From assembly GCA_027021445.1 (NCBI GenBank), contig JALUUH010000138.1:8275-72274 (forward strand): 64,000 bases of DNA, in the 5' to 3' direction. The notes beneath the pieces were generated by a model. The model was not told the origin of the DNA. It made no database searches and worked only from the letters and a program-made list of their open reading frames with translations. Of this stretch, positions 5,901 through 42,220 are shown piece by piece. This DNA comes from Gammaproteobacteria bacterium (GTDB taxonomy: Bacteria > Pseudomonadota > Gammaproteobacteria > S012-40). Each line of letters begins with the position of its first letter. Position 1 is the stretch's first letter. Position numbers and translations under genes: made by a program.

Positions 5901-5940
5901 GAGAACAGCCTCCTAGGAGGCTGTCTGAGAAGCCTCCTGG
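5901..5940. repeat. Solo palindromic repeat unit (CCTAGG-core hairpin), member of the window-wide repeat family
   Basis: A perfect 20-bp palindrome 'acagcctcctaggaggctgt' lies at 5905-5924. Its arms match the terminal inverted repeats of the ~170-bp elements at 24538 and 25635. Confidence 0.6.
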
Positions 5941-5949
5941 AAAATAAGG

Positions 5950-26197: not shown

Positions 26198-26505
26198 TAG
26201 GAGTCACTCGCATTTGAAATTAGGTAAGCTAACAATTCCTTTTTGTCATTCTCAGGAATCGCGTCAAGTGAATTCATAATTCGATGATTATTCATTCGAT
26301 AGATAACATTTGTCCATTCCGATGACTTGTGCTCCACAGGCTTAGGTGGCGCATGACAATCATTGCAATATTTCATCAACATTGGATGATTATTCGCCTT
26401 CAATATGGATAACTCTTCTTCCGCTGGCTTCCCCATATCTGAGCACGCTGAAATTAAACCTGTCAATGCAACGAATAACAACAGAAAAATGCTATTTCTT
26501 TGCAC
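26197..26505 (-). CDS. Small monohaem c-type cytochrome lipoprotein, 102 aa
   Basis: A lipobox is present ('GLISAC'). It has a single CxxCH (CNDCH). It is translationally coupled to its neighbours. Confidence 0.6.
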   Translation of the reverse strand: MQRNSIFLLLFVALTGLISACSDMGKPAEEELSILKANNHPMLMKYCNDCHAPPKPVEHKSSEWTNVIYRMNNHRIMNSLDAIPENDKKELLAYLISNASDS

Positions 26506-26908
26506 TATTTTCTGCTTCTTTCTTTTGCTTCAGTTTTTTTTCTTTTTTTTCTGCTAACTGATGACGCAGATCAACAAAGTAATAAATGATAAAACTCATA
26601 AAAACAACCCAAGCTACGCCTGCCGGAATACCCCAATCAAACCAGGGCCGCTCATAGCCCGGTCTATTTCCCCAGAAAGGAAACGTAAGACCCACCGCGA
26701 CAAGTAATAACACCACAAATATCGCAATAAACCAGTACGGGATAATGACGTTATTTTCCGCCATGTCTTCGACCATTTCCCAGTCTTCAAGGCCTCTTCT
26801 ATCTTTGCGCTCTGCATCGGATTTATATCCAAAATTATCGTCTCTAGACTCGCCCCATTTGGCCTCCTCGGTTGAGTCTGGATTTACGGTATCTCTTTTA
26901 GCGGGCAT
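26492..26908 (-). CDS. Membrane protein with CcoP-N-terminal (FixP_N)-like segment, no haem motif, 138 aa
   Basis: 'EDMAENNVIIPYWFIAIFVV' resembles the CcoP N-terminal 'DNPLPxWW' TM entry. It shares 'P(F/I)WG(N/Q)RP' with ORF 34939-35619. The C-terminal tail is lysine-rich. Confidence 0.5.
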   Translation of the reverse strand: MPAKRDTVNPDSTEEAKWGESRDDNFGYKSDAERKDRRGLEDWEMVEDMAENNVIIPYWFIAIFVVLLLVAVGLTFPFWGNRPGYERPWFDWGIPAGVAWVVFMSFIIYYFVDLRHQLAEKKEKKLKQKKEAENSAKK

Positions 26909-26912
26909 ATAC

Positions 26913-28241: not shown

Positions 28242-28280
28242 GCCAATAGGCTGAATTCACTGAAAAACGTTTAATTCGAA

Positions 28281-28337
28281 CTAGGAACTTATCCGCGAAC
28301 AGTATACGTAACGATCGCAGTTCTCGGACAAACCCTA
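28281..28337. repeat. Miniature (57 bp) member of the CTAGG-ended palindromic repeat family
   Basis: 'ctaggaacttatccgcgaac' and 'gttctcggacaaaccctag' form inverted ends related to the TIRs at 24538 and 25635. Confidence 0.5.
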
Positions 28338-28484
28338 GTATGCACTGAAAATCCAAGCAAAGATTAAATTAACTTTAACTTTTGGAAGAAACAAAGTACT
28401 TGTATTTAAATATTTAATTCGCTATATTCGGTAAACGCATATGAGTTTATGTCGTTAAACAAAAACAATCTGGGGGATTGAATA

Positions 28485-28604
28485 ATGGTTGATAACATAG
28501 GAATTAATATCCTTATTCCATTGGCAGTATTTGGCTTCATCATAGTTGGTTCATTGATGATGGCAGGCGCTGCACTTAAGGATACGCTTGAGCGTCGTAA
28601 ATAA
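28485..28604 (+). CDS. Small hydrophobic peptide, 39 aa (not in ORF track)
   Basis: The ATG is preceded by GGGGGA. The sequence is MVDNIGINILIPLAVFGFIIVGSLMMAGAALKDTLERRK. A strong terminator follows directly. Confidence 0.4.
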   Translation: MVDNIGINILIPLAVFGFIIVGSLMMAGAALKDTLERRK

Positions 28605-28622
28605 ACGCTACCAGGAATCAAT

Positions 28623-28650
28623 AAAAAAACCCGGCAAGCCGGGTTTTTTT
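28623..28650. terminator. Bidirectional rho-independent terminator
   Basis: The sequence is aaaaaaa-cccggcaagccggg-ttttttt. It can serve both the + strand peptide ORF and the minus-strand operon ending at 28675. Confidence 0.8.
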
Positions 28651-28674
28651 ATGCTCAGAATAAACGGCATTTGT

Positions 28675-31299
28675 TTATAATGGCGGATTAATTTCCTTAT
28701 ATAGACTCCTATAATATTTGACCTGCTCCAGATCTCCCTCCGCTTCAGCTATCTCCCATAAATCTTTAATCGCAAAATAGTGATCCGATCTAATTCTAAG
28801 GATTTCTTCTAAAGCTTGCTTTGCTGAGAAGCCATGCTCCTGCGCTTGATTCTTCGATGTGTACATTTGATCCGCTAAACCAAAACCTAACCAACGATCT
28901 TTATTGTTATACGCATAACCTTCTCTTAACTTTTGCAGCGCTTTATTTGGATCACCTTGCAGCGAAAACATCATGCTCTCAGCCCACAAATCAGTTCCTT
29001 TATACGCATTGCCAAACTGTACAAGCTCATCATTTGGAATTGAAAATATACCAGCAACCAGGTTTTCTGCTTGACGCATCGATAACACATATAAAAAAGT
29101 TTCTAATAAATTAAATCTGCCTTCATATTTTGCTTGCGGCAAAAGAAACTCTAATTTGGGAGACCACTCTGACTGTATCGCCGCAACTCTTACATCCTCT
29201 ATGTCGCCGATATAACGGCTCATCCAAGTCCAAACTCCCTCATTACCCGTTTTCTCCATAGTCGCCGGATCATCATACGAAACAAAATGTGACCGCATCG
29301 AAGCATAGAAGTCTGGTTTTTCAAGCGACCCCACTAGCGCCAGCCTAAAACCATCCAAAAATATCGCCGAATGCGGAAATGAGCCTTTAAAAGTACTTAA
29401 AACAATTTTCAGAGATTGAATATCATATTGATTTAAAGCGATCCACTGCACAAAAAGTCCGCGCTGATTCAAGATTCTAGCGACTCGCGCAAAGTGCTCA
29501 CTGGACAATAACGCTCCCCTACCCACGAGATCTGGATGAAATAAATCCCCTATCACTACATCGTAACTGCGCTTTGTTAACTTAATATACCGCCTAACAT
29601 CGTCTCTAACGATATCAATTTTATTACTAACATCCAGATTAACCTTGGCAAAATAACTACCGGCAGACTCGATCGCCCCTGCAGATAATTCTACAGCTGT
29701 AATACTTACCTCAGGGAATGCTAACGCTCCCGACGCAGTAATTCCCGTACCTAAACCCAAAAACAATACCTCTTTTGGGTCGTGATGTAACAGCAAAGAT
29801 AATCTCGCTTGATTTTTCTGAACAGTAACTGCAGTAGGCTCAGTTGAAGCATCCATCCGCTGAAGATCAGAAAGCAACAAACGTTCACCCGATGGCTTAT
29901 CAACAACACTCGTTAAAGAAACTGCATCTTCATAATAAAAAACATCTTTGGAATTTTTAAATGCCTCAGGAAGCAGACTTGAAACAGCAGGAAAGCCGAG
30001 AAACAATAAACCAATGAGCGAAATTGAAACTGCAGATAGCTGATAGGACCTCGAAGGAGCCCAAGCCAAACCGGTAAAAACCACGACCAATATAGAAATG
30101 TATATAATGGATACCGAACCAAACACCGGCAATAAAACAAAAGCAGCCAGCAATGCACCGATGGCGCCACCCAGTGAATTTGCGCCATATAAAAGCACCG
30201 CATCCTCAGCGCTACCTGAGAGACTTTGAAGCAAAACCGGAAACCACATTCCGAATAGAAACGTAACGGGAAAAAACACTACAAACAACACAAAAAATTG
30301 ATTAATAATGGCTTCATTAAAACTTTGAAAGTCGCTTAATTCAGCCCACGAAGATACAAATGGCAGCAATAAGATAGATAACAGACCAAAAACCGCAATT
30401 AACAACGGAATTACTGCTAGCAATACCTTTCGCTGAAAAAACCGATGGGCAAAAGCACCTATACCTATGCCTAATAGAAAAATAGCCAAAAGCATGGCTA
30501 AAACATATTCAGTTCTTAATAACACCATTCCATAAAGCCGAACCCATGCTATTTGCAACATCAAAGCTGCCATCCCTATCAACCCATAAGCAATTAATGA
30601 GGTCTTACTAACAGAGTTTGGTTTTTTGCAGACTACTTTTGATTTACCTAGCTGATCTAAAAAAAAGGACAACACAAAACATAATATTGCGATAAACAAA
30701 CCTAATATTGCCACCAGACGAGAAGAAACTATCCAGCCAAACACAGGCAATAGATAAATTGGCGTAATTGAACCAACGACCCCGCCTATTGTATTAATTC
30801 CATAAATTTGCCCAACTGTAATTTTGTATGGCTTTAACACATCAAGTAACAACGCAAAGGTTGCGCCCATCGCAACAGCAGGAATGAAAAGGAGAATAAA
30901 ACATGCGACTGATTCCAAGAAAAGAAAGGAACTCCAACTATTTTGTTCCGTATTCAAATAAATGAAACCTTCAATTTCCGGAACAAATTTTGGTAGCAAA
31001 AAAGCAAAGATAGCAATAAAGGCTTCCAATAATGCGAACAGCCTTAACGGAGAAATATTGAGCCGGACAAAATAAGCCCCAAGAAACCCGCCAGCGCCTA
31101 GTCCGGCCATAAATGCGGCAACTGTAATGGCTACACCAAAAATGTTTACCCCAAATATAAGCGATAGCATACGAACCCATAATATTTCGTAGGCTAGAGA
31201 AGTAAATCCAGTTAGAAAATATGCAGTTGCTATTAAGAGAGCAATGAAGGGAAGTGTCGACTTAGTTGAAACTTGATTGCCTATAGTCGTTTCAGTCAT
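28675..31299 (-). CDS. Fused polytopic membrane domain / spermidine-synthase-like class-I methyltransferase-fold / C-terminal TPR-like protein, 874 aa
   Basis: The N-terminal region of about 450 aa has many TM helices. The middle 'VLFLGLGTGITASGAL...AVELS...YDVVIGDLFHP' is a SAM/dcSAM-binding, spermidine-synthase-like fold. The C-terminus is helical-repeat. Confidence 0.7.
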   Translation of the reverse strand: MTETTIGNQVSTKSTLPFIALLIATAYFLTGFTSLAYEILWVRMLSLIFGVNIFGVAITVAAFMAGLGAGGFLGAYFVRLNISPLRLFALLEAFIAIFAFLLPKFVPEIEGFIYLNTEQNSWSSFLFLESVACFILLFIPAVAMGATFALLLDVLKPYKITVGQIYGINTIGGVVGSITPIYLLPVFGWIVSSRLVAILGLFIAILCFVLSFFLDQLGKSKVVCKKPNSVSKTSLIAYGLIGMAALMLQIAWVRLYGMVLLRTEYVLAMLLAIFLLGIGIGAFAHRFFQRKVLLAVIPLLIAVFGLLSILLLPFVSSWAELSDFQSFNEAIINQFFVLFVVFFPVTFLFGMWFPVLLQSLSGSAEDAVLLYGANSLGGAIGALLAAFVLLPVFGSVSIIYISILVVVFTGLAWAPSRSYQLSAVSISLIGLLFLGFPAVSSLLPEAFKNSKDVFYYEDAVSLTSVVDKPSGERLLLSDLQRMDASTEPTAVTVQKNQARLSLLLHHDPKEVLFLGLGTGITASGALAFPEVSITAVELSAGAIESAGSYFAKVNLDVSNKIDIVRDDVRRYIKLTKRSYDVVIGDLFHPDLVGRGALLSSEHFARVARILNQRGLFVQWIALNQYDIQSLKIVLSTFKGSFPHSAIFLDGFRLALVGSLEKPDFYASMRSHFVSYDDPATMEKTGNEGVWTWMSRYIGDIEDVRVAAIQSEWSPKLEFLLPQAKYEGRFNLLETFLYVLSMRQAENLVAGIFSIPNDELVQFGNAYKGTDLWAESMMFSLQGDPNKALQKLREGYAYNNKDRWLGFGLADQMYTSKNQAQEHGFSAKQALEEILRIRSDHYFAIKDLWEIAEAEGDLEQVKYYRSLYKEINPPL

Positions 31300-31308
31300 A
31301 TAATAAAA

Positions 31309-31656
31309 TTAATATGGATAAAACCAAACAACCGCAGTGACCGCATGCGCCACTGTTAGAAATACCGAAACACCGGCAAATATCATATGAGGAACAAATA
31401 CATTTTTTCCATAAATCCCGAGAGCCAGGCCAAATGCAGATGTTGCAAAAATGAATACCAACAAAATAATTCCCATGATAAACAATATTTCATGCCTACC
31501 TTGATTGAGCTCACTCTCCTCTTGCACATTAGTTTCTACACTTTTGAAAGGCGCCATCACAGCCGCACCACTCGATTCGGTTGAAAAACTACTCATTGGA
31601 AAAGCAAGCAAAAGCAGTAAGAGACCAATTAAATGGACCTTAGTCATTTTTAGCAT
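31309..31656 (-). CDS. Small membrane protein (signal peptide + 2 TM, His-containing), 115 aa
   Basis: It sits in an operon with only a 9-nt gap. It is hydrophobic and contains 'VPHMIFAG...LTVAHAVTAVVWF'. Confidence 0.4.
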   Translation of the reverse strand: MLKMTKVHLIGLLLLLLAFPMSSFSTESSGAAVMAPFKSVETNVQEESELNQGRHEILFIMGIILLVFIFATSAFGLALGIYGKNVFVPHMIFAGVSVFLTVAHAVTAVVWFYPY

Positions 31657-31668
31657 TTGTATAACCTG

Positions 31669-31899
31669 TTATTTAGTTTTTTTTGAGGTATTGTCTTTTT
31701 TAAACGCAAAGCGCCAATACAATATTGCCATTAATACCGGAGCCGCAAGCACCATTGGCAATAAAAAGATAAAAATTGCCCAAGGTGTTTCTATCGTGAC
31801 GTGCAGCCATCTATAACTATCTGTTGCATCAGCAAAAGCAGACGATGAAAATAAAAGACTACAAACTACAGAATAAATGATTAAAAAATTCTTGCTCAT
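31669..31899 (-). CDS. Small membrane protein, 76 aa
   Basis: It has a signal peptide ('SSSAFADA') and one TM. It is packed within the operon. Confidence 0.4.
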   Translation of the reverse strand: MSKNFLIIYSVVCSLLFSSSAFADATDSYRWLHVTIETPWAIFIFLLPMVLAAPVLMAILYWRFAFKKDNTSKKTK

Positions 31900-31914
31900 A
31901 ATTATACCAACTGG

Positions 31915-32979
31915 TTAGTGATCTACATCTTTAACGGTGCGAAACCCATAAAAATCAGATGCAAAATTAGGCCATGAAAAGTTGCGATGATAGGACGAAG
32001 TTGAAAAAGGATCTCCTTTCCACGACCCACCCCTCATTACTTTATATCTTTCTTCAGTTTCCATAAAGTCTAACATTTTTAAATTTCGTTCTTTTGAATC
32101 TTTAGGGATAATGGGAACTTTTGCCTTGAACAGAGACTCAGATGCCTCGCTACCCTTGTATGGATAAAAATCATCCTCGACCCATTCACTCACATTTCCT
32201 GCCATATCCATTACCCCGTATGGGCTAGCACCCTGAGGATAAGTCGTTACATCCGTAGTAGACCCAACATGATAGTAGGTATTTAGGCGCTTAGGATCCA
32301 TTTTATTCCCCCAAGGCCAGCGTCTAGCATCTTCACCCCTGGCTGCCTTTTCCCACTCAACCTCTGATGGAAGTCGCTTACCCGCCCATTCTGCATACGC
32401 TCTAGCATCAAACCATGAAACCAATACAACCGGGTGCATTTTCAAACCCAAAGGTATTTTTCCAGATTCCCAGTGTAATGGCGGCCGATAGTCAGTGGCT
32501 GCAATGAATCTCGCATATTGAGCATTGGTTACCGGATATTTATCAATTTCATAAGCTGCAACATTCACGATATGCGCTGGCTTGTTCTGCGAGTCAGCTT
32601 TTCTATCATCGGTACCCAAACTATACTCACCAGCGGGAATGAGTATTCTGGTATCAAGTTCATTCCAAACTTCTTCGGTCAATAATGCATTAGCCTCATC
32701 AACAGAATAAGTTACCTTAGGGATCGCTCTGTCCTCTTGAGCTTGGTTTCGATATAAGTCTTCTCCCGCCGCTCTAAGATGATCATTTAATTCAGAGAGG
32801 TCATACGCTGCAAGATCGCGCATTTGGGTCATTCGGTTTAAACCCAACTCCAGAACATGGATGGTGCCCATAACGAGCGCAATTACGATACAAGACACAA
32901 AAGTAGCGCCTAGAATTTTTTTCCTGAATAATATCTGATCAGATGAAACTTTAGTTCTTTTCAAAGCTGGGACTTGCAT
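31915..32979 (-). CDS. Membrane-anchored formylglycine-generating-enzyme-fold protein (SUMF1/EgtB/PvdO/NirV family), 354 aa
   Basis: It has an N-terminal TM. Supporting motifs are 'YEIDKYPVTNAQYARFI', 'HPVVLVSWFDARAYAEWAGKRLPSEVEWEKAARG', 'GNVSEWVED' and 'VMRGGSW'. Confidence 0.8.
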   Translation of the reverse strand: MQVPALKRTKVSSDQILFRKKILGATFVSCIVIALVMGTIHVLELGLNRMTQMRDLAAYDLSELNDHLRAAGEDLYRNQAQEDRAIPKVTYSVDEANALLTEEVWNELDTRILIPAGEYSLGTDDRKADSQNKPAHIVNVAAYEIDKYPVTNAQYARFIAATDYRPPLHWESGKIPLGLKMHPVVLVSWFDARAYAEWAGKRLPSEVEWEKAARGEDARRWPWGNKMDPKRLNTYYHVGSTTDVTTYPQGASPYGVMDMAGNVSEWVEDDFYPYKGSEASESLFKAKVPIIPKDSKERNLKMLDFMETEERYKVMRGGSWKGDPFSTSSYHRNFSWPNFASDFYGFRTVKDVDH

Positions 32980-32988
32980 TACAGAACC

Positions 32989-33516
32989 TCATAAACTTTC
33001 TTTGTTAATATCAGCTGCGGATTCAGGTTTCTTGCTTTCCACTTTATTTTGATAACGAATGTGTCTATCAGACTTTGAACTTCGGCCATACGTTTTTTTG
33101 ATAACATACTCGCCGACTATTCCACCACCTGCGCAAGCTTCCACACAAACAATAACAATCAAAATCCAGTAGCCAATTGGCAGCACTGAAACACCTTCAG
33201 CTAAAAACCGAGTGTCATACGAAATAATATACTCGGGTATCAAAATCAATAGGGGGGGAAAATTGGCCAGCATTTTTCCGCCTAAGCCATAAATAGCAGA
33301 TACAAGCATCCCAGCGATAAACGGAACGACTATGATTGTTACAATCCACATTGGCCGGAAAGTATGTAAAAGCCCGTAATATAGCTCCAAATTTACGCCA
33401 GTTAGCATCTTGCCAAAATAGAAAACAACTGCGCCTGCAAAGACAGCAAATAACGCCCATCCTACATCGAGTATTTTTATTTTACGGGATAGGTTCTGAA
33501 TCATCGGTATAATCAT
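32989..33516 (-). CDS. Polytopic membrane protein of unknown function, ~171-175 aa
   Basis: It has 4 predicted TM helices and overlaps the upstream gene. The start is uncertain (33516 or 33504). Confidence 0.45.
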   Translation of the reverse strand: MIIPMIQNLSRKIKILDVGWALFAVFAGAVVFYFGKMLTGVNLELYYGLLHTFRPMWIVTIIVVPFIAGMLVSAIYGLGGKMLANFPPLLILIPEYIISYDTRFLAEGVSVLPIGYWILIVIVCVEACAGGGIVGEYVIKKTYGRSSKSDRHIRYQNKVESKKPESAADINKESL

Positions 33517-33988
33517 TTCCAGTTAATTTTTCATAACGTTTTTTTGTGGCATCTTGTAAATACCAATCCTTAACCTTTAACGTTGCAAGGTATTTAGCTA
33601 AAGTTTGACGCTCATCCACACTCAAGTGCGCATAGGAAGGCATACGATATTTTGGCTTCAACCTCGAGGGCAAAATATCTTGCGGAACCTCCGATGACAA
33701 ATAATTAAACAGCCAAGCTTCATCTCTAAACTCTCCAACACCATCAATAGCAGGCGCGGGTACAGCTTGATTCAGATCCCTGGTTCCCCATATAAAATGG
33801 CATTCTCTGCAATGAAGAGTTCGGAGAATATTTCCTGCTTTATTAGCTAGTTCTGGGCTAGCATTTGAAACAAATGGTATATCCATTTCTTCTTCAGCTA
33901 CATCTTCTTTATTACCAAACTTCAAGCCTGCAATTATTGCAACACTTAAAATCATCGCTACAGCGATACCTTTTTCACCGGTTCTCAT
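33482..33988 (-). CDS. Membrane-anchored monohaem cytochrome c with CcoO-like haem domain, 168 aa
   Basis: It has a TM anchor and a single CRECH. 'PAPAIDGVGEFRDEAWLFNYLSS...YRMPSY' parallels the CcoO pattern 'GPDL..VG.R....W...HL..P....MP.Y'. Confidence 0.65.
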   Translation of the reverse strand: MRTGEKGIAVAMILSVAIIAGLKFGNKEDVAEEEMDIPFVSNASPELANKAGNILRTLHCRECHFIWGTRDLNQAVPAPAIDGVGEFRDEAWLFNYLSSEVPQDILPSRLKPKYRMPSYAHLSVDERQTLAKYLATLKVKDWYLQDATKKRYEKLTGNDYTDDSEPIP

Positions 33989-34263
33989 TTTTTACGTGCT
34001 TTCGCCTCAAGCTTCTCTCTTAGAACATCCTTGCGTTTTTGCTCTTGTTCTTTTTGTATTTTAAGCATGTATTCGTATTCTTCAGGTTCCATTTTATCTT
34101 TGTCTTTTTCATCAAAGACAACATATTTTATATCTTCATCAAACTGTTCGTTTTTAGCCGCCCAGCGCAAAGCGATACCTGCACCAACTAATATTAGCGC
34201 AGCAACCACCAACCATAAATATATAGTCCATCCATCGGGTAGATTTTGAAAAAAATCAGCCAT
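33985..34263 (-). CDS. Single-TM protein with highly charged C-terminal tail, 92 aa
   Basis: The TM is 'IYLWLVVAALILVGAGIAL' and a K/E-rich tail follows. It has a 4-nt ATGA overlap with the next gene. Confidence 0.45.
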   Translation of the reverse strand: MADFFQNLPDGWTIYLWLVVAALILVGAGIALRWAAKNEQFDEDIKYVVFDEKDKDKMEPEEYEYMLKIQKEQEQKRKDVLREKLEAKARKK

Positions 34264-34274
34264 ACATAATTCCT

Positions 34275-34616
34275 CTAAATCAAGTAACCTTCAATTAACT
34301 GTACATAACCCATAATTACCGCTAAAAATAGTCCAATAATTATCGCGCCAAACATAACTTTTTCACCCGTTTTTAGTTTCTTGTCATCACCCTTTGGCAT
34401 ATATAGATAAATTATAAATCCAAATACAAGTAACGAAAGAACTAAAAAGAAAAAAATATAATTACTGAATACCTGTGAACGCAGACCTTCAATACTCATA
34501 TCTACGCCAAACACAATATTATTATCAGAAACACTCTCAACGACAAATGTCGGCAGCCAATCAAAAACTAATATCTGGCTCATGATGGAGAAAACTAAAC
34601 TACTAAAAACTTCCAT
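34275..34616 (-). CDS. Membrane protein of unknown function, 113 aa
   Basis: It is the first ORF after the terminator at 34709-34745 and has 3 hydrophobic segments. Confidence 0.4.
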   Translation of the reverse strand: MEVFSSLVFSIMSQILVFDWLPTFVVESVSDNNIVFGVDMSIEGLRSQVFSNYIFFFLVLSLLVFGFIIYLYMPKGDDKKLKTGEKVMFGAIIIGLFLAVIMGYVQLIEGYLI

Positions 34617-34708
34617 CTAATGCACCTTTTATTTAATTATAAATATCAATATTTAAGTGAGACTTAGAGTCATTAAATTAAAGAAAGTTTCGTTTAATAA
34701 CCCCTGCT

Positions 34709-34745
34709 AAAAGAAAAGCCGCTCCATTAAGGAGCGGCTTTATTT
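34709..34745 (-). terminator. Rho-independent terminator ending the ccoN-like operon
   Basis: An 8-bp stem (gccgctcc / ggagcggc, 34718-25 / 34731-38) has a 5-nt loop and T-rich flanks on both strands. Confidence 0.7.
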
Positions 34746-34776
34746 CTTGCAAAGCACTGACTAAAAACGTATTTAA

Positions 34777-34926
34777 TTAATTAAATACATCGTCGTCATT
34801 GCCCGCTTCTTCTGAATGGCGCTTCCAATGAGCATCTACTAGGAATATCCCATACAAAGTAGGACAAAGAATAGCGAACGCTATCATGCCAGCAAATACA
34901 CCTGGCGCATAATCATAATCAATCAT
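34777..34926 (-). CDS. Small TM peptide, 49 aa (not in ORF track)
   Basis: The upstream context is TAAGGAGTCATACAAATG, so an AGGAG SD sits right after the upstream stop. The sequence is MIDYDYAPGVFAGMIAFAILCPTLYGIFLVDAHWKRHSEEAGNDDDVFN. Confidence 0.5.
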   Translation of the reverse strand: MIDYDYAPGVFAGMIAFAILCPTLYGIFLVDAHWKRHSEEAGNDDDVFN

Positions 34927-34938
34927 TTGTATGACTCC

Positions 34939-35619
34939 TTATATTCTACCAATGTCAGGCTTTCTCGTAAAATGAGGTAGCTGCTTAATAACAATAATCA
35001 TTGTTATTATGAAATAAGTCACATAAAAAACATCAATCGTGTAACCCTTATCCCACCATGGCTGCAAACGTTCACGAACCAGTTTTCCACCTATTTCAAC
35101 ATAGTTGCCTTCGAAATTAGCAAGAACGATTCTATCACCGATTACGTTATACCAACTTAAAGGGTATAAGCCACCATTTTGAATTTCACGAATACCAGGC
35201 GCGATATTTAGAAGATCATCCCAAGTAATTGGATGTCTCTCCAAAGCACCCTGCAGACGACTATCAGCGCCACTATAAACCAAATTATAGAGATACTCGA
35301 TTTTCTTCTCCGGATCAGCGATTTGCTGTACTTCAGGCGAATTCATATTCGCAACAAATTCCTTGAAGTTGTCAGCAGTAGGCCGCTGCCCCCAGATAGG
35401 CATGGTTATCATGAACGCCGTAAGTATTATCAACGCCATGATTAAAACTAAAGGCATCGGAAGACGATTATTGCCTTCACTTAACCCACCATGTTTTTCT
35501 TTTTCCCAATGCTCTATCATTTCTTTCTGTTCTTTATCATCAGAAAGGCAGTATAGAGGCTGATCAAATTTCCAACCCATAATTAAATCCCCCGTTATCT
35601 CAAGCTCGTCATAATCCAA
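34939..35619 (-). CDS. Haem-less CcoP-position protein: FixP_N-like TM entry + soluble domain + C-terminal TM, 213-226 aa
   Basis: 'EGNNRLPMPLVLIMALIIL' resembles the CcoP N-terminus, and 'PIWGQRP' is present. No CxxCH is present. The likely start is ATG 35580 (GGGGGA SD) rather than 35619. Confidence 0.5.
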   Translation of the reverse strand: MDYDELEITGDLIMGWKFDQPLYCLSDDKEQKEMIEHWEKEKHGGLSEGNNRLPMPLVLIMALIILTAFMITMPIWGQRPTADNFKEFVANMNSPEVQQIADPEKKIEYLYNLVYSGADSRLQGALERHPITWDDLLNIAPGIREIQNGGLYPLSWYNVIGDRIVLANFEGNYVEIGGKLVRERLQPWWDKGYTIDVFYVTYFIITMIIVIKQLPHFTRKPDIGRI

Positions 35620-36575
35620 TCTACCAATGCACGAACCTGTGAATCAGCTGCAGGCTCAGGCACATCAGGCGGATAAATTGAATCACCTTTAAGGTACGTC
35701 ATATACTCAGCTCGCCACTTAGGAAAGTCAATTGATGCACCGCTAGCATCGCGAGCATCCGAAGGACCTTTACCAATTGGCGCCCAAAGATAATCAAACC
35801 TAGGCATGATTGAGTTAGGCTGAACTAAACGCGGATTAAAAAAGTGCATATACATCCATTCACGCGATGAATTACGTGAAGCTACGTGCAAAATATCCGG
35901 TGCTTTACGATCTGAACCGAAAGCGGTAGGCATTTCACCATTGAAGTCACCAAGATATGGCGGAGTACCAAAATACTGCCAATCTTGGGTTTCTTCTGGT
36001 AGCAATGTATGACACCACCAGCAACCCTCTGTGATATAGATGGTTTTACCTGCTCCAACAAATCGCTTAGCATCATCACCAACCGAACTTAGAACCTTAT
36101 CTACCGTCCATCCACGTACTGCCGTTGCATTCTCCACATAATCCAACTCTTCACCGTTGAACTCACCTTTAACAATGGTGAACACTATACCGTCACCCGG
36201 TTTAGCATCGTTAATTTTGCCAACATTGACACTTAACTCTTCAACCCCTAAACCAAGCTGATCAGTATGATTAATACCAGGCGAAAATGGAGTACCAGGC
36301 TTGTATACATAAGCTCTTATTGGCGGATCAATTGCAGCGCCCGTTGAAGGATCTTTGTCTAAAATTACAGTTACTGGCTTACCATCACCTCGCACCAAAG
36401 GATCTTCATAACTAAATCCTATAAGACGACCAGCAGAAAGCTGTTTATCCAAGCCAACCCAAGTAGAAACACCTGAACGGAAGTCAAAACTTGGGAAGAA
36501 CAGTGTAATACTCATTGAAAAGCCCATCATCAAACCGATGCCGGCTGAACCAAATTTATGTTGTCTAAAACCCAC
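35595..36575 (-). CDS. CcoO-like monohaem subunit with ~150-aa insertion between TM anchor and haem domain, 326 aa
   Basis: 'GKTIYITEGCWWCHT' and 'FGSDRKAPDILHVASRNSSREWMYMHFFNPRLVQPNSIMPRFDYLW' match the canonical CcoO/FixO pattern. The extra segment spans roughly residues 40-190. Confidence 0.8.
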   Translation of the reverse strand: MGFRQHKFGSAGIGLMMGFSMSITLFFPSFDFRSGVSTWVGLDKQLSAGRLIGFSYEDPLVRGDGKPVTVILDKDPSTGAAIDPPIRAYVYKPGTPFSPGINHTDQLGLGVEELSVNVGKINDAKPGDGIVFTIVKGEFNGEELDYVENATAVRGWTVDKVLSSVGDDAKRFVGAGKTIYITEGCWWCHTLLPEETQDWQYFGTPPYLGDFNGEMPTAFGSDRKAPDILHVASRNSSREWMYMHFFNPRLVQPNSIMPRFDYLWAPIGKGPSDARDASGASIDFPKWRAEYMTYLKGDSIYPPDVPEPAADSQVRALVDWIMTSLR

Positions 36576-36666
36576 TTGTCACTCCTCCCTAGAAGCAATC
36601 GTTAATCCTGAGGGAAAAAATCGGAACTCCCTCAGGATCTCAAATGCTGCTATTTCAAATTTACGA

Positions 36667-38076
36667 TTACCGCTCGTAAGCCATTTCATGCGCATAACGA
36701 CCATCAGGTATGATAGTACCTTCACGGGCTGTCATCCACATGTTGTATAACCAAATTGTGTTACCGGTAAATACCATAGTTCCACCAATCCAACGTGCAA
36801 TCATATATGGATGCTCAGCAATAACCACATCAATATATGGAACTTCGTAGATTTTACCAGCGCCTTGAATGAGTCCGGCGATAGTCATGGATATCCAGTA
36901 AATACAGAAACCTACAATTACAAACCAATAATGCAGATTTGCCAAGGCTAATGAATAGAGTTTACGGCGTAACATTGCTTGTAAACCGAAGTAAACTGCA
37001 GCAATCTCTAGGAATGTAGACATTCCTAACAACGCTAAATGCGCATGCGCAACAATCCAACCAGTACCATGTACGTACCAGTTAATAGCGCGAGTTTGCT
37101 GGAAGCCACCTTGCATATTCAATGGAATCGCAAGCAAAACACCTGTTACGGAGAATTTGATTTCTACATTCTCTACAAACAAGCTCCACTTACCTTTCAT
37201 TGTTAACAATATGTTAGCAATAAAAGCCACTGCCGGGATAAGAATCAAAACACCTTCTACTGAAGCAAAAGACTTCAACCATTCAGGCAGCGGAGCCGAC
37301 ATCAAATGATGAGAAGCGGGTGTTGAGTAGAAAGCGATGATTGACCAAAAATGCAAATGACCAATTCTATGCGAATAAAGGGGATTCCCCGTTATTTTTG
37401 GAATTGTATAATAAGCAATAGCCGCTGCAACCGGCGTGATCCATAGACCAAGCAAGTTATGTGCGTGCCAGAAAGTCAAATAAGCTTCTGTTAAACCAGT
37501 CAGGTTAAAGAGCTCGGGTGATTGACCAATAGTTACTGTGATTATGGTCAAAAATATCATCGAGCCAAAAAACCAGTTCGTGATGTATATGCCCTGGGTT
37601 TTACGATGAGCAATTGTCATCCAAACATTAATACCCAATGGAAGTAAAACACCAAAAATAACGACTAAATCGATAGGCCAAATCAAGTCACTGTATTCAC
37701 GACCTGAAGTAATCCCCATCCATAACAATAGAAGCCCTAGACTTAAACCAATGTTCCATAGAAACACATTCCATAAGCCTAATTTTTCTGACCATAACTT
37801 GGTATTACCCAGTGATGGCGTCATGTACATCATCGTCATGGCAAAAGCCATAGAAATCCAACCAAGAATTACCGCAAGCACATGCACTTGACGCATATGG
37901 CCAAACGCAAATAACTCCGTACCAGTAACCCAGTCAGGAAACGCAAGTTTTGCAGCGTTAAACGAGCCTAAACCCGTTCCTACTACAAACCAGAAAATAG
38001 ATGAATAACCAAAGAATATGGTTGCCGACCCAACCGGTATGTCCTCATTCTTTGCAAATAATAATTTTAGCAGCAT
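36667..38076 (-). CDS. C-family (cbb3-type) haem-copper oxidase catalytic subunit, CcoN-like, 469 aa
   Basis: It has 12 TM helices. By my count, H65 ('MRQVH'), H206 ('WHAHN'), Y250 with H256/H257 ('AFYSTPASHH') and H344/H346 ('VAHAH') are present. Their spacing equals that of the CcoN ligand set including the cross-link Tyr. Confidence 0.85.
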   Translation of the reverse strand: MLLKLLFAKNEDIPVGSATIFFGYSSIFWFVVGTGLGSFNAAKLAFPDWVTGTELFAFGHMRQVHVLAVILGWISMAFAMTMMYMTPSLGNTKLWSEKLGLWNVFLWNIGLSLGLLLLWMGITSGREYSDLIWPIDLVVIFGVLLPLGINVWMTIAHRKTQGIYITNWFFGSMIFLTIITVTIGQSPELFNLTGLTEAYLTFWHAHNLLGLWITPVAAAIAYYTIPKITGNPLYSHRIGHLHFWSIIAFYSTPASHHLMSAPLPEWLKSFASVEGVLILIPAVAFIANILLTMKGKWSLFVENVEIKFSVTGVLLAIPLNMQGGFQQTRAINWYVHGTGWIVAHAHLALLGMSTFLEIAAVYFGLQAMLRRKLYSLALANLHYWFVIVGFCIYWISMTIAGLIQGAGKIYEVPYIDVVIAEHPYMIARWIGGTMVFTGNTIWLYNMWMTAREGTIIPDGRYAHEMAYER

Positions 38077-38122
38077 TTAAACAGTCCTCCCAATTAATAA
38101 ACCCTGATAATCAAATACAAGA

Positions 38123-38212
38123 TCACTCTTGCATTTTATTAAAAAGGTACCAGGACAACCACATACTTGAAAAAGCAAGCAGAATCCCACAAGCGCCCGC
38201 AAATGTAGCCAT
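38123..38212 (-). CDS. Tiny TM peptide, 29 aa (not in ORF track)
   Basis: The SD TAGGAGG lies 7 nt before the ATG. The sequence is MATFAGACGILLAFSSMWLSWYLFNKMQE. It lies immediately upstream of the ccoN-like start. Confidence 0.4.
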   Translation of the reverse strand: MATFAGACGILLAFSSMWLSWYLFNKMQE

Positions 38213-38231
38213 GCCAAACCTCCTAATTTAA

Positions 38232-38522
38232 TTACCAACCAGTGTTATCGCGTTGAGACTCGATTTCACCATGTTTTTTCATTGCTAGACCAAAGATGAT
38301 CGCGAAAGCAAGCCCAAAAGCAAGCATCATGACATCTACGAAACCCGAGAAAGTTGATGGATTATAAGCTTCTCCATACCAACCGCCCCAGCTTTCATAC
38401 GGCCCTCTACCAACCGCACACATAACCGCGGCACCAAACACACTTCCATTCCCCATACCGGTAGTAAAAGCACCGATAACAAGAGCCCAGAAAGTCTTTC
38501 CTATTGTTAACTTATTTTGCAT
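38232..38522 (-). CDS. Small 3-TM membrane protein, 96 aa
   Basis: I moved the start to ATG 38522 (GGAGG upstream). The protein is Gly-rich and hydrophobic. It is the first gene of the ccoN-like operon. Confidence 0.5.
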   Translation of the reverse strand: MQNKLTIGKTFWALVIGAFTTGMGNGSVFGAAVMCAVGRGPYESWGGWYGEAYNPSTFSGFVDVMMLAFGLAFAIIFGLAMKKHGEIESQRDNTGW

Positions 38523-38797
38523 CTCCACCCTCCGAAGCAAATGATAAGACCCTATTAAAACGCAAATTCCCAAAGCAAATTATGATAATTAGTTTATGAA
38601 AACTTACACATCCCCCAAGCAAATGAGGAAACCTTGGCAGATTGACACAGCTAATGATTAACGTCAAGATAATTGTATGAAAAAACAATGGGCGACAAAA
38701 TGTTGGCAATCCCATAACAAAAAATAATACAATCATCACATTGAGAACACATAGAAACAACTATCTGTTTAATCAAAAATTAGAAAAGGCAGGAAAA

Positions 38798-39001
38798 ATG
38801 CAGAAAAGAGAAATGGCTATTTATATCTTTGTCGCCCTCAGCTCACTATTGGTAGTCTCTTACACAGTACACATGCTTATTGGAGGATTAGTTAGCGAAG
38901 AACTCGAAACACAGATAACAATTGGCGTGACCTTATTTTGGGCCTGCCTCATTATTGCAGCTGGCTTTGACATCGCCAAACGAAGAGGACTCAGAAATTG
39001 A
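38798..39001 (+). CDS. Small 2-TM protein, 67 aa (only plus-strand gene inside the island besides 28485)
   Basis: ATG 38798 follows AGGCAGGAAAA. It has two hydrophobic helices. Confidence 0.35.
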   Translation: MQKREMAIYIFVALSSLLVVSYTVHMLIGGLVSEELETQITIGVTLFWACLIIAAGFDIAKRRGLRN

Positions 39002-39105
39002 GAGACGGCAAGCTGAAAAAGCAAAATGGTATTTACGCAACACAAGAAAACATCAAGTATTTTATCACTATTTATGAATGACTAATAATGAAAAACCACA
39101 GCCGA

Positions 39106-39561
39106 TTACCTAAACACACGAAGCAAAGCCTTCGCTTCACTAAAGCTGCTTTCACTTGAAAATTGACCCTTATGAAAAACTTGCTGCTGTTTTTTTCCTT
39201 CCCCATCCAAACCGGACAAGCCTATACTTTTACCCGCAGTATCCGAAAAAAACCTCACATCCTTCACCATATCGATTGCTTCGCCGTTGCGCAACTCCAA
39301 ACGCACCGACTTATGTGACACATCCAAAGCTATAGCCGATGACGGCAATATCATTAACCGAGTTTTGGCAATGCGATTAAATGCGATCAAGAAAATCATA
39401 GTCGTCATAAACACTAATAGATAAGTAATGTTTTGCTCTCCATTAAACCAAAATTGCGCGGCAATTGAGACCAACGCTACCAGTGTTGGAATATATAGCA
39501 GCAAATCCCACTTCACGCCCTTTTTATCTTGCACAAACTCAAATCTAGAACTTTTTGACAT
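39106..39561 (-). CDS. Membrane protein (2 TM + soluble C-terminal domain), 151 aa
   Basis: It is an ORF packed 4 nt after the upstream gene. I recognised no motif. Confidence 0.45.
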   Translation of the reverse strand: MSKSSRFEFVQDKKGVKWDLLLYIPTLVALVSIAAQFWFNGEQNITYLLVFMTTMIFLIAFNRIAKTRLMILPSSAIALDVSHKSVRLELRNGEAIDMVKDVRFFSDTAGKSIGLSGLDGEGKKQQQVFHKGQFSSESSFSEAKALLRVFR

Positions 39562-39565
39562 ATAC

Positions 39566-40072
39566 CTAACCTTTCTGCTCTGCCAGTATCCGGCCTAATA
39601 CACCATCCAACTCACCATAAAGTAGGCGACCAGGCCGACGAAACACAACTGTACCAGAAGTATCAATAATAAATGTCCACGGATCACCCTTAACCCGATA
39701 GGAAATAAACGCCTCTGGATTCATATATTGATCCATATGCAGAAAAATAACATCTTTTCCATACTTATCAATAATGGCTTTTAACATTTGGAGCTGCTTA
39801 TCACACACCGTACAATGACCAGGCGTAGCAAACTCAATAACAACCGCCTTGTTCAACGCAAGAGCATCATCAACTGAATACTGATACATTCGCGCATCAG
39901 GATGACGATAACTCGTCAACCTACTTAAGTCCCCGCCCACATCATCAATGAATTTGGTTCGCAGACTCGGCGCCTCCATTCCCAAACCCAATTTGCCCGC
40001 AGGATCTTCCATTCCACAGCCAACCAGAAGACTAAACACACCTAATAACAAAGAAAACTTAACGAGCCTCAT
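39566..40072 (-). CDS. TlpA-like thioredoxin-fold lipoprotein (redoxin family), 168 aa
   Basis: I moved the start to ATG 40072. A lipobox is present ('SLLVGCG'). 'VVIEFATPGHCTVCDKQL' has the CxxC in the thioredoxin position. Confidence 0.65.
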   Translation of the reverse strand: MRLVKFSLLLGVFSLLVGCGMEDPAGKLGLGMEAPSLRTKFIDDVGGDLSRLTSYRHPDARMYQYSVDDALALNKAVVIEFATPGHCTVCDKQLQMLKAIIDKYGKDVIFLHMDQYMNPEAFISYRVKGDPWTFIIDTSGTVVFRRPGRLLYGELDGVLGRILAEQKG

Positions 40073-40589
40073 AAGCTTTTTCCCAATTAGAGCAGGTCTT
40101 ATATAAATTATACGCCCAGACAAAATTTGCTAATAAAACCAAGGTACCAAATATGCCCATGATAGCCAATAAAGGCTTCACTATAACCTCTACTTCCTGA
40201 GGCGTAGACATCACACTGGCCATACCACCCATTGTTCCAGCCATAACAAAAAACACCACCATACCGATGACACCCACGTTATGAACCCAAAAATGCACCT
40301 TAACTAAAGCCAAGCTGTAAATTGGCCTCTTGACCAGTCGCGGAACAATATAATAGATAGCTGCAAATATTGCCATTTCGACCCACCCAAGTAAATTTAT
40401 ATGAGTGTGGCCACGCACTATTAAATCACCATGAAGACGATGATCGACGAAATAGCGAAACTCAGCTATTCCTCCCATTAAAGCACCCCATGAAAAACCG
40501 ATAATACTGTATATGATACATGCATATACAAACCACAAAGTATACTTTCGATACTCAATATCATTCTCATGAATCCACGGCAAAGACAT
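40059..40589 (-). CDS. Stand-alone membrane protein homologous to CcoN helices ~IX-XII, 176 aa
   Basis: 'RGHTHINLLGWVEMAIFAAIYYIVPRLVKRPIYSLALVKVHFW' aligns with 'VAHAHLALLGMSTFLEIAAVYFGLQAMLRRKLYSLALANLHYW' of ORF 36667-38076. ATG 40589 is the likely start. Confidence 0.6.
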   Translation of the reverse strand: MSLPWIHENDIEYRKYTLWFVYACIIYSIIGFSWGALMGGIAEFRYFVDHRLHGDLIVRGHTHINLLGWVEMAIFAAIYYIVPRLVKRPIYSLALVKVHFWVHNVGVIGMVVFFVMAGTMGGMASVMSTPQEVEVIVKPLLAIMGIFGTLVLLANFVWAYNLYKTCSNWEKAYEAR

Positions 40590-40612
40590 TTGCAACAACC
40601 CTTCTATTTTAA

Positions 40613-41209
40613 TTATTTATCTTCCAACAAAACATCTGCCTCTGTAGGCGTCTTTTCTCTAATATCTGTATATTTATCACCCCATTCTTTAGGAGCCCAC
40701 ATTTCCACCATATTATCAATAAAAGCCGACTTTTCGGGCGGCGGCACTTTAGCAACAGAAGAACCAGGATCCGCCTTGAGCTCAGATAAAAATACCACAA
40801 TAGCATGCCGATCTTCAGCACTCATTTCACTGGCATAAGCTGCTTCTTTTGGGCGCAAACCATGGTCTAAAGTAATCCCGCCCTCATACACCGATTCCGG
40901 ATGCAAAAGAAATTGAGCCAGCCATTCTTTTGAACGTTTGGAACCAATCCCATCCAGAGACAGGCCCATACTGGTGCCAGTTCTTAATGCTCGATGACAG
41001 GAATTGCAACGTGCTTCACGGTATATTTTAGAACCCTGACTCCCTAATGGCGAAAAATCAAAATGCGTTGTCTGAGCAAACAAAGGCTCTTCAGAATTCA
41101 GTCTCACCGTTTCCAATCCAACGTATGCAATTAACGCCAACAAGAAAAAAACCCCAAATACTATAAATAAAATTTTCTCACCCGACTTTAAAGATTGTTT
41201 TTTTTTCAT
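40613..41209 (-). CDS. Membrane-anchored monohaem cytochrome c with CcoO-like haem domain, 198 aa
   Basis: It has a TM anchor and a single CNSCH. 'GLSLDGIGSKRSKEWLAQFLLHP' parallels CcoO. The start at ATG 41209 is preferred over the TTG at 41248. Confidence 0.65.
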   Translation of the reverse strand: MKKKQSLKSGEKILFIVFGVFFLLALIAYVGLETVRLNSEEPLFAQTTHFDFSPLGSQGSKIYREARCNSCHRALRTGTSMGLSLDGIGSKRSKEWLAQFLLHPESVYEGGITLDHGLRPKEAAYASEMSAEDRHAIVVFLSELKADPGSSVAKVPPPEKSAFIDNMVEMWAPKEWGDKYTDIREKTPTEADVLLEDK

Positions 41210-41410
41210 TATGTAACCGCACCAAATTAATTTAAAAAGCAATGGCAAAGAACTGCGAGCATATAGACTTGCTAATAAATGACTAGTTCACCCTTGCAAA
41301 ATATAAATATTGAAAGCAAAACATGTACGCTCGCCAAATCTAACAAAAAACCTCTAGAGAAAAAATCAATTTCGCAAATTATATTTCAATAAAACCCTAC
41401 TTTATTAAAA

Positions 41411-41450
41411 ACAAAAAAAAAGCGGGCTAAATGCCCGCTTTTCTTTTTTG
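41411..41450 (-). terminator. Rho-independent (bidirectional-looking) terminator after the cytochrome c4 gene
   Basis: The sequence is A8-agcgggc-taaat-gcccgct-T-rich. Confidence 0.8.
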
Positions 41451-41458
41451 CTTTTTAA

Positions 41459-42220
41459 CTAGTAGCCTCTTTCATAGGGCTGCATGATATTGCCCAATGA
41501 ATACGCAGATGCATTCGTTAAGTACGCCGCCGCATTATTAATATCTTCATCAGTCATGTTTTTAGCAACTTTTTGCATTTGACTTTGCGGATCATTTGTT
41601 CTTGACCCATCACGCCATTTTTTCAATTGATTGACTAAATATACATACTTTTGAAGTCCAATTTGCGGATAAATTGGTGGCGCACCACGCCCATTATAGC
41701 CATGACAAGCTCTACAAGAAGGCACGGGCTTAGCTCGATTGCCCTGACCATACTCAACTAAAGTCTTACCTTTGTGAGTCAAACCAACTTCAACACCCTG
41801 CTCTTTCAGGGCATTTAAATCAGATCCTTTGTACTCATCAGCCTTACCCGTTGTTAGGGTTGACAAATAGAAAGAAACGTCATTTCGATCCTGCGCCGAT
41901 AACCCCTTCGCATTATCATTCATAACAAACATAGTAGTGTCCAAACGCTTGTCAGTTGCATAATCTTCTAACTGCTTACGCAGAAAAACCCAAAACTGAC
42001 CCGCGATACGAGGCGTTCCTAATGCGTCATCACCTGTGCCATCTTGACCATGACACGATGAACACGCAGGAACTGAACCCTTACCGTTCTCATATATACT
42101 CTTACCATTCGCAACATCACCACTACCCTTTGGGTATTGCGGCGAAGACATTACTAATGAAGGTACTACTGCCCCTACTACGAAAGCGGCGACAGAAATA
42201 GCGGTGACTAACCGTTTCAT
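41459..42220 (-). CDS. Dihaem cytochrome c4-type protein, 253 aa
   Basis: It has a signal peptide and two CxxCH motifs (CSSCH, CRACH). Each is followed by a 'G...P.I.GQ' and Met-loop pattern ('LKKWRDGSRTND...MQKVA'). Confidence 0.8.
   Translation of the reverse strand: MKRLVTAISVAAFVVGAVVPSLVMSSPQYPKGSGDVANGKSIYENGKGSVPACSSCHGQDGTGDDALGTPRIAGQFWVFLRKQLEDYATDKRLDTTMFVMNDNAKGLSAQDRNDVSFYLSTLTTGKADEYKGSDLNALKEQGVEVGLTHKGKTLVEYGQGNRAKPVPSCRACHGYNGRGAPPIYPQIGLQKYVYLVNQLKKWRDGSRTNDPQSQMQKVAKNMTDEDINNAAAYLTNASAYSLGNIMQPYERGY

Follow-up and report, generated by a model that had tools for sequence, protein, structure and literature searches.

This analysis concerns a 64,000-nt stretch of DNA from a gammaproteobacterium (assembly GCA_027021445.1, contig JALUUH010000138.1), here called the window, in which a short gene (positions 40059-40589, minus strand) encodes a protein of 176 amino acids (aa) that resembles the end of CcoN, the catalytic subunit of cbb3-type oxidases. 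Is this gene the decaying remnant of a ccoN gene, or does it encode a protein in its own right, and which role could an oxidase-like protein of this size have? We call the protein mini-COX1, a single-unit homologue of the haem-copper oxidases (HCO), whose four transmembrane (TM) helices correspond to helices IX-XII of CcoN. The genes of the module around mini-COX1 and those of the ccoNO stretch are all located on the minus strand. The comparisons described below give good support to the conclusion that mini-COX1 is a functional gene under strong purifying selection and not a decaying piece of ccoN.

Sequence and predicted fold of mini-COX1

The open reading frame (ORF) of mini-COX1 is intact, and the copy of the protein found in the database (P0001) likewise has 176 aa. 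Comparison with the Pfam profile COX1 gave a score of 64.5 bits (cut-off 34.8), and the match was restricted to positions 301-435 of the 436 profile positions. In a BLASTP comparison with the neighbouring CcoN (36667-38076), mini-COX1 showed 29% identity across CcoN residues 321-450 with an E value of 3e-15. The first-pass annotation, which was made from the sequence of the window, had claimed that the ORF aligns with the C-terminal third of CcoN, and all the motifs quoted for this claim were recovered in the BLASTP alignment: HTHINLLGW opposite HAHLALLGM, AAIYY opposite AAVYF, and IYSLALVKVHFW opposite LYSLALANLHYW. The AlphaFold2 model of mini-COX1 (predicted local distance difference test, pLDDT, 91.7; predicted template modelling score, pTM, 0.84) consists of four long helices comprising residues 10-40, 55-86, 93-124 and 130-166. 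Using this model as query for a Foldseek search in the PDB, the seven best matches were CcoN chains with TM-scores of 0.77-0.81 by query length. The four long helices of the model and the partial Pfam match indicate that the twelve-helix core of COX1 and CcoN is not present in mini-COX1.

Positions 345 and 347 of CcoN from P. stutzeri (3mk7_A), which we take to be the ligands of haem b3 and haem b, pair with H61 and H63 of mini-COX1. From the six histidines that serve as metal ligands in the oxidase core (helix II, helix VI, the HH pair of helix VII and the HxH pair of helix X) mini-COX1 has this HxH pair alone. The helix II histidine is missing, and the CuB histidines of helices VI and VII have no equivalent because the protein contains only four TM helices. 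The annotated pattern of a retained helix X pair and of absent CuB ligands and helix II histidine was thus correct. Both H61 and H63 are invariant in 22 aligned sequences with identities as low as 41%, and the complete set of invariant residues in this family (alignment A1) comprises H61, H63, N65, G68, W69, E71, P83, S92, H103 and N104. E71, H103 and an N-terminal PW...EYR segment are specific for the family. The proposal of a distinct N-terminus together with an own ATG and Shine-Dalgarno sequence agrees with this segment and with a GAAGGG sequence located 9 nt 5' of the start codon. The gap between the stop codon of the upstream cytochrome c gene and the start of mini-COX1 is 23 nt, which leaves no space for remnants of helices I-VIII.

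Four family-specific polar residues inside helices 2 and 3, E71, H99, H103 and N104, are invariant or nearly so and are placed between the cytoplasmic end of the protein and the HxH pair. The 'HFW' position, which in helix VII of the cbb3 oxidases is presumably located at the entrance of a proton channel, is taken by H99 in mini-COX1; together the four residues could form a candidate proton path. Membership in the family DUF2871 (PF11070) was also considered and was rejected, with a score of 16.6 bits against a cut-off of 27.4.

Conservation and selection

A search of 5.8 billion protein clusters identified 754 homologues of mini-COX1, and the best 120 of these 754 are 169-183 aa long and 71-100% identical to the query; in public annotation the homologues appear as 'cbb3 subunit I'. 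A relative of mini-COX1 is encoded in 388 species-representative genomes, and the best 80 of them were used for a comparison of the loci. This set consists of metagenome-assembled genomes (MAGs) of Gammaproteobacteria (Ectothiorhodospiraceae, Chromatiales, Thiohalomonadales and Ca. Tenderia) and Zetaproteobacteria genomes (Mariprofundus and Ghiorsea). The identity of mini-COX1 over these two proteobacterial classes is 72-91%, and the ORF is intact and of the same length in 80/80 loci. The median identity among the 80 loci amounts to 75.7% for mini-COX1, compared with 79% for CcoN, 57.8% for the cytochrome c encoded upstream, 58.7% for the redoxin encoded downstream and 47% for a 151-aa protein following the redoxin.

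Comparison with the closest locus (L001) yielded 0.052 nonsynonymous (dN) and 1.35 synonymous (dS) substitutions per site and a dN/dS ratio of 0.039, within the range of the neighbouring genes (0.02-0.08); the ratio refers to this closest pair, as synonymous sites are saturated beyond it. The linkage to the partner genes is close to invariant. The cytochrome c gene is found upstream of mini-COX1 in 76/77 loci, the redoxin gene downstream in 77/77 and the gene of the 151-aa protein downstream in 75/75. CcoN is encoded in the same locus in all 51 of the 51 loci with sufficient flank, and a dihaem cytochrome is located upstream in 61/70.

Homologue length, dN/dS and co-occurrence with the cytochrome c and redoxin genes had been named in the first-pass annotation among the checks of a functional gene, and all three came out on the side of the gene. 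Full-length homologues elsewhere, upstream remnants and a lack of purifying selection had been named in advance as contrary findings, and none of them was observed. The assignment as a functional gene made there is well supported by the intact ORFs, the degree of identity, the dN/dS ratio, the synteny and the transcription of the Ca. Tenderia orthologue described below.

Homology to all three thirds of CcoN and to fused relatives

Using hhalign, the mini-COX1 family was compared with each third of the family of the neighbouring CcoN. The alignment with helices I-IV had a probability of 94.9% (E 4e-8) and placed H61 on the haem b histidine of helix II; the alignment with helices V-VIII had a probability of 91.5% (E 9e-7) and placed H63 on the CuB histidine of helix VI; and the alignment with helices IX-XII, with a probability of 98.4% (E 5e-15), placed H61 and H63 on the HxH pair. 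A profile of the small homologues likewise matched CcoN three times in an hmmsearch run, at residues 21-126, 165-246 and 323-452. Judged by these profile alignments, mini-COX1 is homologous to all three thirds of CcoN, most strongly to helices IX-XII. The three hhalign alignments together imply that each cofactor pore of the oxidase is built from the first histidine of one unit and the second histidine of the preceding unit. According to this pattern the helix II histidine and the second histidine of helix X hold haem b, and the first histidine of helix X and the helix VI histidine hold the haem b3/CuB site.

Relatives of mini-COX1 were sought exhaustively in 1.84 billion representatives, and three kinds were found: many free units of 130-190 aa, two-unit proteins of 279-291 aa and three-unit proteins of 390-530 aa. 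In a three-unit family with 25 members of 411-419 aa (P0133) an HxH pair is invariant or nearly so in each unit (H40/H42, H185/H187 and H322/H324). The AlphaFold2 model of this family (pLDDT 91.5, pTM 0.90) contains twelve membrane helices and superposes on the whole of CcoN with TM-scores of 0.75-0.80 by query and 0.67-0.71 by target. The identity of mini-COX1 to the units of the P0133 family is 32-48%, compared with 29% to the last third of the neighbouring CcoN. The name 'truncated CcoN' is therefore a misnomer, because mini-COX1 is closer to these three-unit relatives than to the CcoN encoded next to it. The members of the P0133 family come from MAGs of Deltaproteobacteria and other Proteobacteria and are also annotated as 'cbb3 subunit I'; in the two loci L082 and L083 the gene (5001-6236) is adjoined by genes for a PilZ protein and ATP-citrate lyase and not by respiratory genes. 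P0296-P0303 are listed with P0133 among the symmetric multi-unit homologues, and a separate two-unit family of 279-281 aa carries the 'cbb3 subunit I' label as well.

Among the free units, P0126 is 46% identical to mini-COX1. The genes around it are arranged differently, yet a similar cytochrome c and a lipoprotein with an H-C-T-x-C motif are encoded nearby: the order is cytochrome c, a second small unit, a gene with an FGE-sulfatase domain, P0126, the similar lipoprotein and a CcoG-like gene. The cytochrome c and redoxin genes that accompany mini-COX1 do not recur with the single-unit proteins P0140, P0153 and P0130 or with the three-unit protein P0278, from which it follows that this partnership is specific to the mini-COX1 family and its 46%-identical relatives.

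Some additional observations were made on the more distant relatives. In one locus (L081) the module is present in a distant form with two different small units of 180 aa (685-1227) and 187 aa (2273-2836) and an FGE-sulfatase gene between them, an arrangement with which, for this lineage, a heterotrimer would agree better than a homotrimer. Single oxidase-like units fused to or adjoining DUF1858 (PF08984) were found in P0304, in P0305 and at L087 875-1114, a hint that the function may be of another kind elsewhere in the superfamily. On two independent contigs (L084 and L085) a gene of the CARF/Csm6 family (417-1619) is located directly upstream of the single-unit P0140 (160 aa, 1712-2194); this adjacency may be a coincidence.

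Operon partners of mini-COX1 and the neighbouring oxidase genes

Mini-COX1 is the second gene of a four-gene module. The first gene (40613-41209) encodes a membrane-anchored monohaem class I cytochrome c of 198 aa with an N-terminal TM helix and the haem-binding motif CNSCH. It scored 34.1 bits with the Pfam profile Cytochrom_C, and among solved structures it is most closely related to the cytochrome c domain of subunit ActA of alternative complex III (ACIII; 6btm_A, E 7e-4). Over its full length it is a paralogue of the monohaem cytochrome encoded at 33482-33988 (E 8e-8). The first-pass annotation had described this protein as a CcoO-like, membrane-anchored monohaem cytochrome. The anchor and the single haem site were found, but the relationship to CcoO was not: the FixO profile gave 19.8 bits against a cut-off of 29.6 and covered only residues 63-86 around the CxxCH motif, and the BLASTP comparison with the neighbouring CcoO gave an E value of 0.08.

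The third gene (39566-40072) encodes a putative thioredoxin-fold lipoprotein of 168 aa, a candidate for a periplasmic thiol:disulfide oxidoreductase of the TlpA/ResA type. Read from the ATG at 40072 the protein begins with MRLVKFSLLLGVFSLLVGC, which is a lipoprotein signal containing an LVGC lipobox; the active-site motif CTVC comes after it. With this start codon the gene overlaps the end of mini-COX1 by 14 nt, exactly as had been annotated for a CxxC lipoprotein gene. The scores with the Pfam profiles Thioredoxin (22.2, cut-off 23.5) and AhpC-TSA (19.8, cut-off 26) were both just below the threshold, and the closest relative of known structure is the thiol-disulfide isomerase 3ia1 (E 9e-4). 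The fourth gene (39106-39561) starts 4 nt past the stop codon of the redoxin gene and encodes a protein of 151 aa with two predicted TM helices and a C-terminal soluble domain; searches of Pfam and NCBIfam gave no match above the cut-off, and the protein belongs to no known family. This fourth gene, the island of about 16 kb described below and the earlier listing of the module in Ca. Tenderia go beyond the first-pass annotation.

Directly upstream of the module a dihaem cytochrome c4 with two Cytochrom_C domains is encoded (41459-42220). It is the orthologue of the Cyc1 protein of iron oxidisers, and its counterpart in Ca. Tenderia (ALP51722) is labelled Cyc1. A hairpin resembling an intrinsic terminator (41413-41447, minus strand), with a 15-pair stem and a T run behind it, is located 3' of this Cyc1-like gene and sets it apart from the four-gene module. 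The promoter scan detected 11 sites, which is not above the expectation of 7.7 +/- 2.7 from shuffled sequence.

A complete C-family oxidase consisting of CcoN and CcoO (35595-38076) is encoded about 1 kb beyond the module. CcoN (36667-38076, 469 aa) matches the full COX1 profile with 243.7 bits, and alignments A2-A4 show conserved histidines at the positions that ligate CuB and the haems. CcoO (35595-36575, 326 aa) scored 58.4 bits with FixO; this match covers residues 175-264 only, and about 150 residues between the N-terminal anchor and the haem domain could not be assigned to a family. At the helix VI CuB-ligand position of CcoN, residues 204-206 read H-A-H and resemble the HxH of mini-COX1; the consensus of the orthologues at this position is F-A-H, and the first histidine is lineage-specific. 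Between the module and the ccoNO operon a small ORF is located on the plus strand (38741-39001). A tblastn match in the same place was found in most of the 80 loci with 27-74% identity, and the ORF at the corresponding position in Ca. Tenderia, Tel_00430, is transcribed (log counts per million, logCPM, 6.8). The ORF probably encodes a real small membrane protein.

A conserved island around the module

The module belongs to an island of some 16 kb (25808-42220, minus strand) whose gene order is kept between Gamma- and Zetaproteobacteria. The Cyc1-like dihaem cytochrome and the four-gene module are followed by a 113-aa protein, CcoN, CcoO, a 226-aa protein and a second 113-aa protein. Then come a FixS/CcoS-like protein (33985-34263; 25.2 bits, above the cut-off), the monohaem cytochrome paralogue (33482-33988), a 175-aa membrane protein (32989-33516) and a protein with an FGE-sulfatase domain (31915-32979). 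These are followed by a spermidine-synthase-like membrane protein of 874 aa (28675-31299), a CcoG-like polyferredoxin (26913-28241) and another small cytochrome c (26197-26505). A second small oxidase-like gene was not found in the window, neither by tblastn nor by a broad profile search of all ORFs, and the 175-aa ORF, which occupies the site of the extra copy in L081, showed no detectable similarity.

Expression of the orthologous genes in Ca. Tenderia

According to the legend of Fig. 2B of a preprint on Tenderiales (10.1101/2022.05.06.490989), Ca. Tenderia electrophaga shows the same gene order: dihaem ALP51722, monohaem ALP51723, 'truncated CcoN' ALP51724, thioredoxin ALP51725, hypothetical proteins, CcoN ALP51729, CcoO ALP51730 and, later, a CcoG-like protein. 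In the proposal made there, the product of the region is a single membrane-bound complex, 'a sort of alternative complex IV' (10.1101/2022.05.06.490989). In the work of Eddie et al. 2017 (PMC5371394) the dihaem protein is Cyc1, and the monohaem cytochrome and the mini-COX1 orthologue are designated as 'Complex IV (1)'. The kind of protein to which mini-COX1 belongs has already been described and its orthologue has been listed before, so the gene itself is not new.

Table S1 of PMC5371394 gives logCPM values of 12.4 for Cyc1 (Tel_00405), 9.27 for the monohaem cytochrome (Tel_00410), 8.71 for the mini-COX1 orthologue (Tel_00415, ALP51724.1), 9.60 for the thioredoxin (Tel_00420), 8.91 for the hypothetical protein orthologous to the 151-aa protein (Tel_00425) and 13.7 for ccoN (Tel_00440). 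With values of 8.7-9.6 compared with 13.7 for ccoN, the four genes behave as one unit that is transcribed about 30-fold below the oxidase. Transcription of Tel_00410 to Tel_00425 did not respond to the electrode potential (PMC5371394). The sequence of the window itself was detected in only three DNA metagenome runs, all from hydrothermal vents, and in no RNA run.

A possible role for mini-COX1

We tentatively favor a reading, to which we assign a probability of roughly 45%, in which mini-COX1 is a functional redox module lacking CuB, a homotrimer with b haems at its interfaces that is fed by the co-encoded cytochrome c. We infer haem binding only from the alignment of the invariant H61 and H63 with the haem ligands of helix X. 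The oligomer is most likely a trimer, as is indirectly supported by the predicted fold of the three-unit relatives; the existence of these fused relatives and the homology to all three units point to a head-to-tail trimer and not to a dimer. Three copies of mini-COX1 would pack head to tail and thereby rebuild a 12-helix oxidase core. At each interface H61 of one protomer and H63 of its neighbour would ligate one bis-His b haem, so that a homotrimer could hold up to three such haems close to the periplasmic face. Electrons would be delivered to these haems, or taken from them, by the co-encoded cytochrome c, which has its anchor in the same membrane. As CuB is lacking, the complex would not be a proton-pumping oxidase, and mini-COX1 is probably not an oxidase at all. 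It may serve as a low-abundance module for electron transfer or redox buffering that branches off the chain from Cyc1 to the distal cbb3 oxidase in iron, sulfur and electrode oxidisers. The lipoprotein would most likely keep periplasmic cysteines reduced, either those of haem c CxxCH motifs or those of a copper chaperone.

Several points weigh against this proposal. The haem, the oligomer and the partner of mini-COX1 and of its close relatives have all been deduced by inference, and the two-unit relatives of 279-291 aa indicate that a strict homotrimer is not the sole possible assembly. Three bis-His haems would leave the complex with no obvious substrate site. The maturation genes of the island (FixS, CcoG-like and FGE-sulfatase) make a role in assembly equally compatible with the gene context, and the expression data come from a different organism, Ca. 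Tenderia, and not from that of the window.

A role in biogenesis is the alternative that deserves most attention, although we consider it rather unlikely. Mini-COX1 could mimic the last third of CcoN while the neighbouring distal-type CcoN is assembled, either carrying haem b or providing a scaffold or a placeholder, and the thioredoxin-like lipoprotein would then serve the delivery of haem c or copper. This would agree with the presence of the cbb3 maturation genes in the island, including FixS/CcoS with its 25.2 bits, with the FGE-sulfatase and CcoG-like genes at the P0126 locus, with the constant company of CcoN (51/51) and with transcripts about 30-fold under those of ccoNO in Ca. Tenderia, as expected of an assembly factor. 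A chaperone would not be expected to have its own conserved cytochrome c with a membrane anchor encoded at the head of the operon, however, and with a median identity of 75.7% mini-COX1 is as conserved as the catalytic subunit and more so than all its neighbours in the operon; in addition, other single-unit and three-unit relatives occur without oxidase genes nearby. The same transcript data bear on a less probable alternative, in which mini-COX1 forms no complex of its own and docks on CcoNO as an accessory subunit, which corresponds to the 'alternative complex IV' of the Tenderiales preprint. Its constant linkage to ccoNO and the single membrane-bound complex proposed there speak in favor of such a subunit, but the low transcript level compared with ccoNO argues against a stoichiometric oxidase subunit. 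Moreover, the strong terminator and the separate operon set the module apart from cyc1 and ccoNO, and the invariant HxH ligands would be left without partners unless mini-COX1 oligomerises.

The suggestion of the first-pass annotation that the protein is possibly dimeric is probably wrong. Two copies could complete the bis-His ligation of one or two haems, each chain provides two histidines and two-unit fused relatives do exist, but by homology H61 and H63 face two different pores, which leads to a head-to-tail interface that closes as a ring of three, and for the relatives with three fused units the predicted fold is that of the entire 12-helix core. We therefore regard a homodimer as improbable. 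A functionless, decaying or truncated ccoN fragment, as suggested by the public labels 'truncated CcoN' and 'cbb3 subunit I', has practically no likelihood left. It was rejected on the basis of the intact ORF in all 80 loci and in the best 120 homologues, the dN/dS of 0.039 and the conserved synteny; the family-specific N-terminus and invariant residues, the 23-nt gap without upstream remnant, the closer relationship to non-oxidase relatives than to the adjacent CcoN and the transcription of the Ca. Tenderia orthologue point in the same direction. A more far-reaching version of the trimer model, in which the homotrimer with three interface haems and its dedicated cytochrome c is a self-standing respiratory module without CuB that has a reaction of its own, seems to us a long shot. 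Such a complex might couple cytochrome c to quinone in reverse electron transport, or be a proton-coupled device using the invariant polar ladder H99/H103/N104/E71 on the cytoplasmic side; it might also be a surviving ancestor of the haem-copper oxidases from before their triplication that still works in iron- and electrode-oxidising bacteria.

Significance and comparison with known systems

The island with Cyc1 and the distal-type cbb3 oxidase is among the most highly expressed respiratory loci of electrode- and iron-oxidising bacteria, and its small genes are routinely dismissed as 'truncated CcoN'. Mini-COX1 could be tested as the protein behind a step that is still unassigned in neutrophilic iron oxidation or in electroautotrophy, or as a participant in the assembly of the distal cbb3 oxidase. 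As an experimentally tractable system provided by nature, it also lends itself to tests of the idea that four-helix haem proteins, joined as a trimer, gave rise to the 12-helix oxidase core. For annotation, the label 'cbb3-type cytochrome c oxidase subunit I' is misleading in the case of hundreds of genes of the mini-COX1 type.

Compared with CcoN from P. stutzeri (3mk7_A), mini-COX1 has the same helix IX-XII fold (TM-score 0.78, root-mean-square deviation 1.7 A) and shares the YS...HFW motif with which the third helix begins. It differs from cbb3 CcoN in having 4 of the 12 helices and in lacking the helix II histidine, the CuB ligands and the cross-linked Tyr, and the identity is 22-29%. With the three-unit P0133 family mini-COX1 shares the motif HxH(I/L)N(L/V)LGW, which is present in each unit, whereas that family forms a fused chain, lacks E71 and H103 and has no cytochrome c or redoxin neighbour. 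The 'truncated CcoN' of Ca. Tenderia (ALP51724.1, Tel_00415) is an apparent orthologue in the same gene order, and the Tenderia MAG loci L053, L055 and L068 encode proteins 75-77% identical to mini-COX1. In the Tenderia papers the gene figures as a truncated oxidase or a part of one, and neither the logic of the three-fold units nor the pattern of histidines nor oligomerisation is taken up there; in Tenderia a second 'truncated CcoN' is located at the far end of the island, whereas none is detectable in the window.

Free-standing four-helix homologues of the HCO catalytic subunit ('HCOH') were reportedly described by Pei, Li, Kinch and Grishin (Protein Sci 2014;23:1220). Their closest similarity is reported to be to helices IX-XII; they are said to represent one 'evolutionary unit' out of three and to have been proposed to form homo- or heterotrimers. 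In a paper citing this work (PMC4602095) the four-helix units of Pei et al. 2014 are presented as a trimer equivalent to the oxidase core. Mini-COX1 belongs to the single-unit HCOH class, since it is likewise encoded by an independent four-helix gene, is homologous to each of the three units and has conserved histidines in the second helix. In contrast to that class, the mini-COX1 family has its own conserved partners, namely the cytochrome c, the thioredoxin-like lipoprotein and the 151-aa protein, and occupies a fixed site between cyc1 and the distal-type ccoNO genes in iron, sulfur and electrode oxidisers.

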